A stretch of 64,000 bases of DNA from an uncultured Eubacteriales bacterium (GCA_900542445.1 UQNN01000007.1:26399-90398); one strand, 5' to 3'. Positions 22,741 through 63,030 are shown, numbered from the stretch's first letter. The notes: generated by a model from the letters alone, not told the origin. A program made the numbers and translations.

Positions 22741-22960
22741 TTGGGGCTTCGCCCCAATCCGGGAAACGTGCATAGGGGCGCTGTCCTCTGCCTGCGGCAG
22801 ACGCGCCCGTTTCACGAACGCCATTCTGGCTCCTTGCAGTTTCCAATTTCCGCCATGCTGATTCCCGCACAGCGGGCGCATGGCTCCAATTCCCCGGCAG
22901 GGAACTGAGTTTCCTGCACCTTCCACCTCTTTATCGCTGCGCGATAAAGGATAAAAAAAC
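22741..22960. repeat. MITE/REP-like composite palindromic element, copy 1
   Basis: ttggggcttcgccccaa (7-bp stem, 3-nt loop) ... cagggaactgagtttcctg ... tttatcgctgcgcgataaa. Modules shared with copies at 26.9, 31.2, 35.8, 53.1, 57.3 and 62.9 kb. Confidence 0.7.
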
Positions 22961-23048
22961 CTCAATACTTGCATTCCATCGCCGTAAGGGCGCGCGTCCG
23001 CTCTTTATTCAGAGACAGCGGAAAGATTCCCCATATAACGAAAGGGGG

Positions 23049-24272
23049 TTAGAAATAATCCGAGAAATACGGCTGTTCGATAGGGATGATATCTTCCAGA
23101 ATGCGCACGGCGGTGTCATTCGCCTGAAGTCTCTCGACGCGCTTGAGATATGTCGGACGCTTATAGCCGTAGAACATCGCCGTCAGCGTCTGAATGTCGC
23201 AGCGAACGGTTTCGCCGCGCGTGCCGCCGCGCTCCAAGATGGTATCACCCGCCGCGTCCCAGCGGAGGGAAAAATCACCGCAGTTGCATTCCATAATCGG
23301 ATCGTCGATGATGAAATGCAGGTCGTCGTGAATGGAGATGATATCAAACGGATACTGCCGGATGAACTCTTCAAAATCGACGATCCGCGCCATGATATAC
23401 GGCTCGATTTCCTCCTGAATTTCGCTGTCTTCCAGCAGAAACGCCATCGGTTCGTTGGTGTAGTTGTTGCCGACAACCTTGTCGATCATCGAGAAATGGG
23501 CGGAGATATAGTTCCACAGGCCGTGCCGCGCCTCCTGATTGATATAGACCAGTTCCTTGATGCGGAACACGTCGTTGGCGATATAATAGACGAGGTATCC
23601 GGTCGGCTTTTCGTTCGCGTCGTAATACACGGCGACAAGCACGTCGTCGGCCTCCCAGCGCCAGTATTCCTCCCATTCCAGCTCGTTGCGCTTGAGCGCG
23701 CCGTGGCGCATGGCGGAAAACGCGTCGTGTACGCGGTGCACATCCTCGCTGTCGATATCCACGCGCTCCACCATGCCGCCGACCTTGTGGTGTTTGGGCA
23801 GCTGGGTATCCTTGATGGTGTAGGTCATCTTATCCGAAACGATTTCCCAGCCCTTTTTGCGGTAATACGGAATCAGATACGGGAAGAGCATCGATACGCA
23901 CTGGTGGTTTTCGCGCATGTTGTCCAGCGCTTTTTTCATCAGGTGCGCCATCAGCCCGCGCCCCATGTATTCCGGATAGGTCGCCACGCCGGTCACGCCG
24001 CCCATATTGTACATCGTGCCGAACAGATTGACCTGCATCGGATACACGCTGATCTGAGAAGCGAGTTTCTCCCCGTCGAACCAGCCGAAGGATTCCGTCT
24101 TTTTGAGTACAGGCTTTTTGCTGCGCTCCATCTCCTTCTGATTCCAGCCCAAAGAGGCCAGCTCGCTGTCCGTCACCTGAAACGCATAACGAAGCAGCGC
24201 ATTATACTGCGCGGTGTCGTCCACCGTCAGCCTGCGCATTTGCAATCGATCTTCCAGTTTTCCCTGCCTCAT
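23049..24272 (-). CDS. GNAT family N-acetyltransferase with C-terminal SCP2-like domain (Eis-like)
   Basis: 407 aa. AGGAAGG RBS 5 nt upstream of the ATG. Acetyltransferase core YPEYMGRGLMAHLMKK. Confidence 0.7.
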   Translation of the reverse strand: MRQGKLEDRLQMRRLTVDDTAQYNALLRYAFQVTDSELASLGWNQKEMERSKKPVLKKTESFGWFDGEKLASQISVYPMQVNLFGTMYNMGGVTGVATYPEYMGRGLMAHLMKKALDNMRENHQCVSMLFPYLIPYYRKKGWEIVSDKMTYTIKDTQLPKHHKVGGMVERVDIDSEDVHRVHDAFSAMRHGALKRNELEWEEYWRWEADDVLVAVYYDANEKPTGYLVYYIANDVFRIKELVYINQEARHGLWNYISAHFSMIDKVVGNNYTNEPMAFLLEDSEIQEEIEPYIMARIVDFEEFIRQYPFDIISIHDDLHFIIDDPIMECNCGDFSLRWDAAGDTILERGGTRGETVRCDIQTLTAMFYGYKRPTYLKRVERLQANDTAVRILEDIIPIEQPYFSDYF

Positions 24273-24373
24273 GGTATCCTTCCTGTTCGCATTCTCGTTT
24301 CAAAGTCTGTCAAAATCGCATATAGTATAGCATAAAGCCCGCCTTCATTTCAAGGCGGGTTCTGATGGGCTGT

Positions 24374-61001: not shown

Positions 61002-61267
61002 TTTCCTCCCGCCGATTGCAGAATCGGCGGTTTTTTGGTCGCGCCGCGTTCCTATAAGCGGTATGAAATGCGCCGCCCGTCTCTCCCGTTTCTCCCTGTA
61101 AGCCAACGCAAACAGTTTGTTTTGCTGAATACTGCATTTTCCATCCGTATTTTTTTGCACCTTTCAGCTTTTCAAGCGAAATCGTTTATGATATACTATA
61201 TGATTGTTTGAAAGTAGCCTGGGAGCGCGTCTGCCGCTCCTTTCCATCATCCCAAGGAGGATCAACC

Positions 61268-62878
61268 ATGCCTGATACGCCGATGCCCGGTTCGCTCGCG
61301 GCTGAAACCGCCCGCCGCCGGACGTTTGCCATTATCTCCCACCCGGACGCCGGCAAAACGACGCTGACCGAAAAGCTGCTGCTGTATTCGGGCGCGATTC
61401 GTACCGCCGGTTCCGTCAAAGCCCGCAAGAGCGACAAACATGCCACCAGCGACTGGATGGATATCGAGAAACAGCGCGGCATTTCCGTGACCTCCTCGGC
61501 CATGCAGTTTGAATTTGACGGCTATCACATCAACATTCTCGACACTCCCGGCCACCAGGACTTCTCGGAGGACACCTATCGCGTGCTCGTCGCGGCGGAC
61601 AGCGCCGTGATGCTCATCGACGCGGCCAAGGGCGTCGAGGCGCAGACCATCAAGCTGTTCAAGGTCTGCCGCCTGCGCAACATCCCGATTTTCACCTTTG
61701 TCAACAAGATGGACCGCGCGGGCAAAGACCCGTTCTCCCTGATGGAGGAAATGGAGCAGGTGCTCGGCATTCGCGCCTGCCCGATCAACTGGCCCATCGG
61801 CACGGACGGCGACTTCAAGGGCGTTTACCACCGCGACACACAGATGGTGGAGCTGTATGAATCCGGCGACCACGGCAAAACGCGCGTGGAAAAGCAGGAT
61901 GTGCCACTTGACGACCCTCAGCTGCCGGAGCTGCTCGGCGACCGGCTGTACAAGCGCCTGATGGACGAAATCGAGCTGCTGGATATCGCGGGCGATTCGT
62001 TCGATCTGGATCTTGTGCGCAAGGGCGAGCTGACGCCGATGTTCTTCGGTTCGGCCATCACCAACTTCGGCGTCGAGCCGTTCCTGACCCGCTTCCTTGA
62101 GTACTCCACCCCGCCCGCCTCGCATGAGAGCGACATGGGGCTGGTGGAGGCCGACGATCCGGATTTCTCCGGTTTCATCTTCAAGATTCAGGCCAACATG
62201 AACCCGGCGCACCGCGACCGACTGGCCTTCATGCGCATCTGTTCGGGCGTGTTCACCAAGGGCATGACCGTCTGGCACAGCGGCACGAACAAGATGATTC
62301 AGCTCAAGCAGCCGCAGCAATTCATGGCGGACGAGCGCGAAGCCGTTGAAAACGCCTATCCGGGCGACATCATCGGTCTGTTCGACCCCGGCATTTTCGC
62401 GCTGGGCGATTCGCTCTGCACGGGCAAAAAGCGCCGCTATCCGGGCATTCCGGTGTTCGCGCCGGAGTTCTTCGCCCGCGTGAGCAGCATCGACAGTCTC
62501 AAGCGCAAGCAGTTCGTCAAGGGCGTTTTGCAGCTGAGCGAGGAAGGCGCGATTCAGACCTTCAAGCGGCCGGGCATCGGCTTTGAGGAGATCATCGTCG
62601 GTGTGGTCGGCGTGCTTCAGTTTGAAGTGCTGGAACACCGTTTGAAGACGGAATACAACGCCGAAATCCGCCGCCAGCAGCTCCCCTACCGCTTTGTGCG
62701 CTGGATCACCAAAACACCGAAAGCGATCGAGGATTTGAAGCTTTCCAGCACCTCTTCGTTAGCGAAGGACGCGCGCGACCGCGACGTGATTCTTTTTGAA
62801 AACGAGTGGTCAATTCGCTGGGCGCTGGAAAACAACGAAGGCCTGGAGCTGGCGGAAACCGCGTCGAGGCTGGGGTGA
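61268..62878 (+). CDS. prfC: Peptide chain release factor 3 (GTPase)
   Basis: Start at ATG 61268 (AAGGAGG RBS). G1 SHPDAGKTT, G3 DTPGHQDF, G4 NKMD. Confidence 0.9.
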   Translation: MPDTPMPGSLAAETARRRTFAIISHPDAGKTTLTEKLLLYSGAIRTAGSVKARKSDKHATSDWMDIEKQRGISVTSSAMQFEFDGYHINILDTPGHQDFSEDTYRVLVAADSAVMLIDAAKGVEAQTIKLFKVCRLRNIPIFTFVNKMDRAGKDPFSLMEEMEQVLGIRACPINWPIGTDGDFKGVYHRDTQMVELYESGDHGKTRVEKQDVPLDDPQLPELLGDRLYKRLMDEIELLDIAGDSFDLDLVRKGELTPMFFGSAITNFGVEPFLTRFLEYSTPPASHESDMGLVEADDPDFSGFIFKIQANMNPAHRDRLAFMRICSGVFTKGMTVWHSGTNKMIQLKQPQQFMADEREAVENAYPGDIIGLFDPGIFALGDSLCTGKKRRYPGIPVFAPEFFARVSSIDSLKRKQFVKGVLQLSEEGAIQTFKRPGIGFEEIIVGVVGVLQFEVLEHRLKTEYNAEIRRQQLPYRFVRWITKTPKAIEDLKLSSTSSLAKDARDRDVILFENEWSIRWALENNEGLELAETASRLG

Positions 62879-62881
62879 TGT

Positions 62882-63030
62882 CGGGGCTTTGCCCCGAACC
62901 CCAGCAGGAACCTGAGGTTCCTGCACCTCCCGCTTCTTTATCGCTTCGCGATAAAGGACATCAAATCATCCTTTATACGGGAAGTCCAGAAACCTCAGGT
63001 TTCTGGCGGAGTTTGAGGCAGAGCCTCAAC
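62882..63030. repeat. MITE/REP-like composite element, copy 7
   Basis: ggggctttgccccgaacccc | caggaacctgaggttcctg | cacctccc | tttatcgcttcgcgataaa | ccagaaacctcaggtttctgg | gtttgaggcagagcctcaaac. Confidence 0.75.

Follow-up and report, generated by a model that had tools for sequence, protein, structure and literature searches.

What are the palindromic hairpin mosaics that lie between genes in a 64,000-nt stretch of DNA from an uncultured Eubacteriales bacterium (GCA_900542445.1 UQNN01000007.1:26399-90398)? This stretch, hereafter the window, is all of this genome that was analysed, and it carries seven sites with such sequences. The host is placed among the human-gut Christensenellales; its RecA and QueA are named in databases as "Christensenellales bacterium" and as a "Clostridiales bacterium" metagenome-assembled genome (MAG), respectively, and the window proteins are widespread among human-gut assemblies. 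To our knowledge, repeats of the repetitive extragenic palindromic (REP) type have been well studied almost only in Proteobacteria and are not known from abundant uncultured gut Clostridia. We find that the elements are probably a non-coding palindromic repeat family of this Christensenellales species, resembling REPs, bacterial interspersed mosaic elements (BIMEs) and REP doublets forming hairpins (REPINs).

A first-pass annotation of the window had claimed a multi-copy intergenic family of palindromic mosaics, and motif counts against shuffled sequence, blind repeat families and a covariance model all agree with it. The hairpin P1 (TTGGGGCNNNGCCCCAA) has seven exact matches, compared with 0.03 expected from dinucleotide shuffles, and the motifs P2 and P3 are also far above chance. 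An independent, blind repeat search recovered a left-end family with copies at 26853, 53069, 57227, and 62873 and a right-end family with copies at 26972, 31185, 53157, and 62975. A covariance model built from 45 arms and run on the window with filters off returned 10 arms below an E-value of 1e-4 and no other noteworthy match. These arms make up four complete elements spanning 149-182 bp, one solo arm, and one arm separated from its P1; the seventh site, at 35.8 kb, holds a remnant that the model does not detect.

Each arm is 62 nt long and reads, from outside to inside, tag (GGGGNACG), P1 (TTGGGGC-KYY-GCCCCAA, a 7-bp stem with a 3-nt loop), a 6-nt linker (RCCCCR), P2 (a variable 9-bp stem with a TGA loop), and a C-rich tail, A(C/T)(C/T)T(C/T)CC. 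A complete element consists of two such arms, inverted and facing each other around one or two perfect central palindromes, so that the ends are indeed inverted repeats, as first described. The motifs listed in that description are real, with two corrections: its "P3" is the P2 of the opposite, inverted arm, and its conserved short spacer "P5" (GATTTCCC / CACCTCCC) is really the tail that follows P2. In many central palindromes the triloop is GAA/TTC, as in d(GCGAAGC), a DNA mini-hairpin of unusual stability, and 17 of the 42 occurrences of GCGAAGC/GCTTCGC in the window fall within ≈1.5 kb of element sequence. Roughly one in six arms among the metagenome matches listed has CTCCTTT in place of the tag; as this is the complement of the Shine-Dalgarno sequence, P1 there directly abuts the ribosome-binding site (RBS) of the next gene, as it does at 22.7 kb.

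The hairpin structure of the arms is maintained. We scanned metagenomes with a pattern that fixed only the 3' half of P1, three Cs of the linker, and the 5' half and loop of P2, which gave at least 120 stretches, mostly from the human gut, and 109 unique matches. Among the matches listed, 87 of the 109 are true, independent arms, and the 9-bp P2 stem is perfect in 70 of these. The 22 matches without a matching 5' half of P1 comprise 18 chance matches, which serve as an internal control, and four arms with a degenerate P1; the P2 stem is 0-3 bp long in 18 of the 22 and 9 bp in the other four. At least nine versions of the P2 stem occur, each perfectly complementary (CCAAGAACC, CAAGGGAAC, GCAGGGAAC, GCAGGAACC, GAAGGGAAC, GAAGGAACC, CCAGAGAAC, ACAGGGAAC, and CCCGGAACC). 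Standard pairs fill 98.3% of the cells in the 45-arm alignment, and changes on both sides are seen at 12 of the 16 pairs, values for pairing and covariation that none of 500 shuffles reaches; sliding the partners by one column lowers pairing to 54-58%. G·U occupies six of 719 cells and is no commoner than outright mismatches. That the stems co-vary within each arm points to a folded single strand rather than to a duplex binding site for a transposase, and the strict Watson-Crick pairing, together with use in both orientations, suggests that a single-stranded DNA form also matters.

Arms of this kind are numerous and regularly arranged. The covariance model found 172 of them in 733 kb of related metagenome loci (these and other compared sequences carry L numbers below). 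Where arms lie at most 350 nt apart, 37 inward-facing inverted pairs stand against two other arrangements; elements are 149-346 nt long (mode 151), and solo arms and tandem hairpin arrays are common. On a gene map drawn from open reading frames (ORFs) filtered by GC content at third codon positions, Pfam, and the called genes of related contigs, all seven window sites lie in co-directional gaps, exactly as the first-pass annotation stated, and none of the four divergent gaps holds an element. Twenty-one elements have called genes on both sides, of which 14 lie in co-directional, four in convergent, and three in divergent gaps. For 13 of the 22 outer ends measured, the distance from the upstream stop codon is -2 to 12 nt; these 13 are among the 15 that have a called gene within 55 nt. 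Both the arm census (10 arms in 64 kb of window) and this survey of flanking genes (18 of 21 co-directional or convergent) bear out a position and density like those of REPs and BIMEs.

Comparison of 16 strain-level contigs that cover the window sites shows that five sites are fixed among the strains compared. Two elements vary ≈5 times less than third codon positions: nucleotide diversity is 0.0030 in the 26.9 kb element (fixed in 11 strains) and 0.0038 in the 53.1 kb element (fixed in seven), relative to 0.0165 and 0.0168 at flanking third codon positions and 0.002 at first and second codon positions of the flanking genes. The value of 0.036 for the 57.3 kb element arises because a segment is replaced in some strains. 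Its central palindrome includes a compensatory pair within the species, ...TTGCCTTGCGG/CCGCAAGGCAA... versus ...TTGACTTGCGG/CCGCAAGTCAA..., and other strains have the one-sided intermediate. The compensatory stem changes and the diversity below that of synonymous sites indicate that the elements are kept intact by selection or homogenisation; most likely, the hairpins are under structural constraint and placed where the fate of operon mRNA could be influenced. Three alleles occur at the prfC-typA site. One is the window element; another, in L005, is a distinct 207-bp element with a hairpin loop that carries an extra insertion; the third, in L002, is a single chimeric P1. The L005 element is placed 3' of a P1 that is solo in L002, and the L002 P1 has a left half matching that of the left L005 P1 and a right half matching that of the right L005 P1, which is most simply explained by a P1-P1 deletion.

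The elements have been copied to unrelated loci as whole composites and exchange modules. The ruvB-queA composite recurs beside unrelated genes at non-orthologous loci (L254, L293/L300/L340, and L304), none of which encodes RuvB or QueA, and keeps its P2 version, its 36-nt palindrome, and its odd right arm, and the orthologous cinA site of L278 has a centre of the argG-argH type, a module swap. Syntenic comparisons of the same spacer find it empty, filled, or occupied by an unrelated fill (L290 versus L291; L237, L232, and L318). A first design of junction BLAST searches found no empty sites; a second found several, and filled and empty pairs, which the first-pass annotation had suggested looking for, do exist in relatives (L291 versus L290, L232 versus L237), most with flanks so diverged that exact insertion boundaries are not fixed.

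A separate module, M6, is nested within the arms. This non-coding sequence of ≈90-135 nt, with the core GCCATGC...CCCGCACAGCGGGCGCATGGC, is met only nested in arms of the main family (the window, L255, L252, L241, L232, L311, L094, and L307), and 11 copies have defined junctions. M6 lies between P1 and the linker in the window, L252, L255 (twice), and L241 and inside the 3' half of P1 in L232, L311, and L094, always immediately 5' of the C-run next to P1. One of the L255 sites has an empty state in L281, with flanks 98.6% and 95.4% identical, and the window copy holds a 45-nt strain-variable indel. Along with the L005 arrangement and a variable-number tandem repeat (VNTR) that starts at CCCCAA, the M6 junctions suggest that the junction beside GCCCCAA and the C-run is a possible reactive point for breakage and joining, with slippage at microhomology as the alternative. 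We infer that the elements spread in trans via a putative enzyme that would recognise the P1 hairpin on single-stranded DNA and join next to the C-run after GCCCCAA.

At the RNA level, the 26.9 kb element is predicted to fold very stably (z = -10.1 and -111 kcal/mol as RNA; z = -11.4 as DNA). In the minimum-free-energy fold, both copies of P1 and their tags pair together as a long basal stem, from which P2, the two central palindromes, and P2' branch off. By analogy with enterobacterial REPs, the elements are probably co-transcribed with their flanking genes, and their RNA could act as a barrier to 3'-exonucleases or as a processing site. The base of the element close to a stop codon and the next RBS abutting its other end suggest that it might also modulate translation termination and re-initiation. 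Given that the elements fill many spacers in core-gene operons (arg, ruv-queA, prfC-typA, and pgsA-cinA) and that two of them exceed synonymous sites in conservation, they likely shape mRNA processing, stability, or translational coupling in a gut lineage that is prevalent.

The elements share with enterobacterial REPs and BIMEs the abundance of intergenic palindromes after stop codons and between co-directional or convergent genes, the inverted pairs and mosaics with conserved linkers, the compensatory stem evolution, and the lack of coding capacity, together with a plausible capacity for mRNA stabilisation and for a role in translation termination when ≈15 nt or less from the stop codon. As in REPINs, two units are paired in inverted orientation across a short spacer (37:2), with the left P1 pairing with the right P1 in the fold. 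They differ in that each arm has two perfect hairpins with 3-nt loops, whereas a REP is one imperfect palindrome of 20-40 nt, and in having perfect central palindromes, a Clostridia host, and no REP-associated tyrosine transposase (RAYT) found in the window and 2.8 Mb of element-bearing loci. The strings for P1 and for P1 plus tail are absent from the searchable full-text literature, the REP reviews consulted describe neither the motif nor REPs in Firmicutes, and no Rfam family covers the elements, in line with the earlier remark that elements like REPs or enterobacterial repetitive intergenic consensus (ERIC) sequences are little described in GC-rich Clostridia. The family appears to be previously undescribed. 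With REP-like behaviour but no fit to GT[AG]G-tagged or CGTC-tagged REPs, miniature inverted-repeat transposable elements (MITEs), Rfam families, or attC sites, the elements work like REPs, BIMEs, and REPINs and belong to no described family.

Several points weigh against a REP-like family. The GT[AG]G tag, sought 0-2 nt 5' of the hairpin foot, is absent from the elements; GGGGNACG precedes the hairpins and RCCCCR follows them (GGGGT-hairpin-CGTC on the opposite strand), with no GTAG or GTGG. The flanking ORFs encode, by Pfam, housekeeping genes only and no mobilising enzyme, and neither the window nor the 2.8 Mb of loci yielded a Y1 transposase in a tblastn search with an IS608 TnpA sequence that Pfam recognises at 145 bits. 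Most copies are found at the orthologous site in every strain sampled, so they move little or not at all at present, and the "empty" L002 site is better read as a deletion between P1 copies than as a pre-insertion site. The genome-wide copy number is an extrapolation from 64 kb, and every function proposed for the RNA rests on analogy.

A stricter version of the REP-like family, which we regard as possible but doubtful, holds that these are RAYT/IS200-type REPINs whose hairpins are cut and rejoined beside P1 by a single-copy domesticated Y1 (HUH) transposase encoded elsewhere. The inverted doublets of hairpin units agree with this idea, Watson-Crick stems and d(GCGAAGC)-type triloops would suit single-stranded DNA, insertions always abut the C-run beside P1, and Group 1 RAYTs are reported in Clostridia, though they are rare in Alphaproteobacteria (PMC5581495), where the P1 head is abundant. 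However, the GT[AG]G tetranucleotide that guides RAYTs and defines their associated REPs (PMC6006769) is the very feature that is missing. A pattern search for HUH...YxxNP gave no match in the window or the 2.8 Mb, nor did an E. coli RAYT query, a weak negative as Pfam does not recognise that query. Searching viral contigs for TnpA relatives returned seven unrelated loci, and all-versus-all clustering of 2207 ORFs around 121 heads found only common housekeeping families to be shared.

It is unlikely that the elements are instead immobile structured RNA genes or cis-regulatory RNAs (a small RNA, an attenuator, or an RNase III site) whose function lies in the RNA only. The stable predicted fold, the diversity below synonymous sites, and the fixed place between a stop codon and the next RBS would all be accounted for, and in the 31.2 kb arm the P2 with its linker looks like one hairpin (GGGGGUG-CAGGGGG...CCCCCUG-CCG) of the Rfam model RF02937 Clostridiales-2. 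That match is partial, however, at 22.8 bits (and 13.6 bits for a second) against a gathering score of 58.6, with the rest of the model skipped; the other arms have no match, and neither does L271, a closer-looking arm variant. Rfam searches of the window and of single elements, in gathering and E-value modes, returned tRNAs, a sub-threshold T-box, and weak matches (rpsL_pseudo at 24 bits, Clostridiales-2 at 23 bits), with no family at threshold for the elements, which answers the earlier concern that the motifs might be parts of annotated structured RNAs. The elements also occur in both orientations relative to transcription, each holds both arm senses, G·U pairs occur no more often than mismatches, neither a promoter nor a terminator lies at the element flanks, and the same composite stands beside unrelated genes.

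Intrinsic termination, a role suggested in the first-pass annotation, was considered and rejected. Terminator calling on the window called no P1, P2/P3, or central-palindrome hairpin, and none has a T-run behind it; the one site called within an element (62914) is a 5-bp stem that arises by chance, and the host has ordinary T-tailed terminators elsewhere in the window (59449 and 61009).

Classical MITEs, that is, deletion derivatives of insertion sequences (ISs) with DDE transposases, recognised as duplex terminal inverted repeats and flanked by target-site duplications, offer a quite improbable account, of which only part of the original MITE interpretation survives. The terminal inverted repeats are there, as arms of ≈62 nt with complementary outer tags (GGGGNACG and CGTNCCCC); the size of 149-346 bp is suitable, and identical composites at unrelated loci and filled and empty sites are expected of such elements. 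Across 33 elements, however, the longest word shared by the flanks averages 4.33 nt, compared with 4.21 nt in re-paired controls, and no target-site duplication was found. The strong compensatory evolution inside the arms is not needed for duplex recognition, and solo arms and tandem hairpin arrays are common. Nor was an autonomous partner found: no full-length IS with the same ends was seen in the loci compared, and head pairs spaced 1.9-5 kb apart (L031, L252, and L171) enclose no transposase but housekeeping or phage genes, namely, a cyclic di-GMP enzyme with a two-component system, a glycosyltransferase, and a phage portal gene. An annotated plasmid collection gave no match, and the lone match in annotated collections is one end of an unannotated fecal phage contig.

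That these are unrelated local hairpins (degenerate terminators, slippage products, or attC-like integron sites) is hardly credible: tandem amplification of the tag and of a 95-bp unit does show slippage at these sites, but arms of fixed 62-nt geometry were counted more than 170 times in 733 kb, the hairpins lack a T-run behind them, and the genes alongside are core housekeeping genes (arg, ruv, queA, prfC, typA, pgsA, and cinA) without an integrase. The attC core GTTRRRY requires a pyrimidine where GTTGGGG has a purine, so that attC-like sites of a known system, which the first-pass annotation had raised, are rejected.

The REP-like elements of the window can also be set beside other small intergenic repeats. 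Like the pneumococcal BOX, RUP, and SPRITE and the Neisseria Correia elements, they are modular, small, intergenic, and probably co-transcribed, with predicted stable stem-loops of a kind that could alter the expression of neighbours. Their sequences are unrelated to these, RUP and Correia are IS-derived MITEs with target duplications, and BOX modules are not made of perfect triloop hairpins. The CGTC-tagged REP superfamily, which includes Neisseria dRS3, spans several phyla with no Firmicutes listed and has no known dedicated transposase; its members have a 5'-CGTC head, an 8-9 bp stem opening with two A·T pairs, a 4-5 nt loop, and a CCA tail (PMC3733652). The resemblance lies in short GC-rich stems with two outermost A·T pairs, a 4-nt tag and a C-rich tail at opposite ends, a preponderance of head-to-head dimers, occurrence in several phyla, and no known dedicated transposase. 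The order differs, however (5'-GACG-stem...stem-ACCCC-3' here versus 5'-CGTC-stem...stem-CCA-3' there), as do the sizes (a 7-bp stem with a 3-nt loop versus 8-9 bp with 4-5 nt), and so the specific agreement is confined to the two outer T·A pairs.

The head, P1 with its C-run, also occurs far beyond the host, a finding that is at once the most interesting and the least explained. The family is thus not peculiar to Clostridia, a point that the first-pass annotation missed, and its head is common to several phyla. Scanning one genome per species for P1 followed by NCCC gave at least 119 stretches (loci L007-L125; those from IMG/VR are L136-L226 and L347 onward). The matches listed include isolates of Oscillochloris trichoides, Streptomyces, Sulfitobacter, Leisingera, Roseovarius, Tropicibacter, Sutterella, and Anaerotignum and MAGs of Acetobacteraceae, Magnetococcales, Vicinamibacterales, Selenomonadaceae, Synergistaceae, and many Clostridia; a few in AT-rich MAGs could be binning errors. 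The free positions of the loop are biased toward K-Y-Y (T84/G31, C68/T33, and T77/C43 of 121), and A occupies the free linker position, and C the next, in 100 of 121 each, with R after them. In IMG/VR, NCCC stands on exactly one side of 53 of 110 P1 sites and on both sides of none, relative to a chance expectation of ≈3.5%. The head TTGGGGC-KYY-GCCCCAA-ACCCC starts lineage-specific repeat bodies, each lineage having its own conserved body, in Christensenellales and other Clostridia, Rhodobacteraceae, Acetobacteraceae, Streptomyces, Chloroflexota, Vicinamibacterales (Acidobacteriota), Magnetococcales, and phage contigs. The full two-hairpin arm model matches over its whole length, at 45-61 bits, in Acetobacteraceae, where back-to-back arm pairs are present, and in Magnetococcales, Selenomonadaceae, Synergistaceae, a deltaproteobacterium, and a Chlamydiales MAG. 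Predicted phage contigs also carry arms, for example on both sides of an SPP1-type portal gene.

We tentatively propose, as an idea that may well prove wrong, that the head TTGGGGC-KYY-GCCCCAA-ACCCC(R) marks a third cross-phylum superfamily of hairpin repeats beside the GTAG- and CGTC-tagged REPs. One head with a strand-asymmetric pyrimidine loop and a one-sided C-run would then start bodies across lineages, and nested modules insert exactly beside its C-run. If such a superfamily exists, a widespread enzyme acting on single-stranded DNA would be expected, either distinct from the RAYT that reads GTAG or belonging to a RAYT clade of novel specificity, and elements could travel between hosts in phages. 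The mobiliser of RAYT-less REPs has been a standing question since the CGTC REPs were described without a dedicated transposase, and the recurrence of a near-identical head in phages and remote phyla offers a practical starting point in the search for the protein recognising it. On a practical level, the elements break assemblies, their strain-variable sites and VNTRs could serve typing, and they can extend the ends of upstream reading frames.

Table 1 Sites and features of the repeat family in the window. Positions are counted from the first nucleotide of the window.
Feature	Position	Strand	Upstream gene	Downstream gene	Details
Site	22.7 kb	-	GNAT acetyltransferase	rlmA-like	
P1 hairpin TTGGGGC-TTC-GCCCCAA	22741..22757	+			Exact pattern match; head of interrupted left arm; directly 5' of RBS and start codon of rlmA-like gene (minus strand)
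Nested module M6	22758..22891	+			134 nt, inserted between P1 and CCCC linker; TCCGGGAAAC...GCCATGC-TGATTCCCGCACAGCGGGC-GCATGGCTCCAATT
Rest of left arm and central palindrome	22892..22948	+			Model match 22872-22927, 42 bits; linker CCCCGG; P2 CAGGGAAC-TGA-GTTTCCTG (one G·T); tail CACCTTCC; central palindrome TTTATCGC-TGC-GCGATAAA
Site	26.9 kb	-	pgsA	cinA	
Complete element	26853..27034	.	pgsA	cinA	Arms 81.6 and 80.6 bits; left arm 26853-26914; central palindromes 26917-26937 and 26950-26970; right arm 26973-27034; bounded by pgsA stop (27041) and cinA RBS and start (26842)
Site	31.2 kb	-	mrr	glyS	
Solo arm	31186..31247	-	mrr	glyS	Model match 62.7 bits; P2 variant CAGGGGGAT-AAT... (plus strand CAGGGGG-ATTAT-CCCCCTG)
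95-bp tandem repeat, 4.8 units	31234..31693	+			Tandem Repeats Finder; 93% matches
Site	35.8 kb	-	DUF6020 protein	oxidoreductase	
Remnant	35761..35808	+			Read from sequence, not detected by covariance model; P2 3' half (CTCTTGG), tail ATTTCCCAC, degenerate TTTATC...GATAAA palindrome
Site	53.1 kb	-	argG	argH	
Complete element	53069..53219	.	argG	argH	Arms 78.4 and 74.7 bits; left arm 53069-53130; perfect 24-nt central palindrome 53133-53156 (CGCTTCGCGGCATGCCGCGAAGCG); right arm 53158-53219; bounded by argG stop (53232) and argH start (53043)
Site	57.3 kb	+	ruvB	queA	
Complete element	57227..57375	.	ruvB	queA	Arms 83.7 and 24.6 bits; left arm 57227-57288; perfect 36-nt palindrome 57286-57321; degenerate right arm 57317-57375; bounded by ruvB stop (57223) and queA start (57398)
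Site	62.9 kb	+	prfC	typA	
Complete element	62873..63037	.	prfC	typA	Arms 82.2 and 74.6 bits; left arm 62873-62934; central palindrome 62936-62956; right arm 62976-63037; typA at 63075

Some sites of Table 1 have features of their own. The arm at 22.7 kb is the one split between P1 and linker by M6. The right arm of the 62.9 kb element has a co-varied P1, TTGAGGC-AGA-GCCTCAA, and the prfC stop codon (62878) falls inside the outer tag, GGGTGATG, of this element. The 35.8 kb remnant is kept in all strains compared and is preceded by a canonical terminator-type hairpin. The solo arm at 31.2 kb is preceded by mrr and followed by the glyS promoter and a T-box-like leader; a near-consensus, promoter-like site is found at 31150-31122, upstream of glyS, and positions 30992-31114 on the minus strand match a T-box leader below threshold (46 bits, compared with a gathering score of 93). 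The adjoining 95-bp repeat begins at the CCCCAA of the P1 of this arm, and each unit ends in CCCCAA and contains the hairpins ATCGC-GAA-GCGAT and GAGCCGGG...CCCGGCTC. It is a VNTR, the mrr-glyS intergenic region ranging from 496 to 876 nt between strains, and a search for the unit at other loci did not find it, so the unit is not dispersed. The outer tag of the arms (GGGAGAGACG or GGGGACGTT) is likewise tandemly amplified several-fold in places (L236 ≈2740-2765, L260, L345, and L232), and in L232 the upstream ORF reads through into the element and acquires an altered C-terminus.

Other features of the window are recorded here as minor observations. Positions 40000-46000 have a GC content of 49-52%, compared with ≈60%, and adjoin tRNA-Ile and tRNA-Asn; the genes there are for ordinary transporters and a two-component system, and neither an integrase nor a transposase is among them. 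A 75-nt direct repeat with 88% identity (51185-51259 and 51362-51436) has the look of a partly duplicated tRNA; the 3' end of tRNA-Val (51419-51495, minus strand) and a terminator-like hairpin both overlap the second copy, and strain L003 lacks the adjoining segment (≈46-51 kb) with an ABC transporter and a two-component system. A giant ORF of 5531 aa with SpaA/FctA/Cna_B/DUF5979/DUF7601 repeats occupies 1465-18060 on the minus strand and contains an internal 300-nt duplication, 99% identical and 780 nt apart (3422-3721 and 4202-4501). Complete calls of this gene are 5262-5525 aa across strains; shorter calls (2193-4515 aa) have no Pfam record and may be cut by a contig end. In the gene beside this giant adhesin, coding tandem repeats of 18/36/54 bp (18733-19157) accompany a product that varies from 381 to 423 aa between strains.

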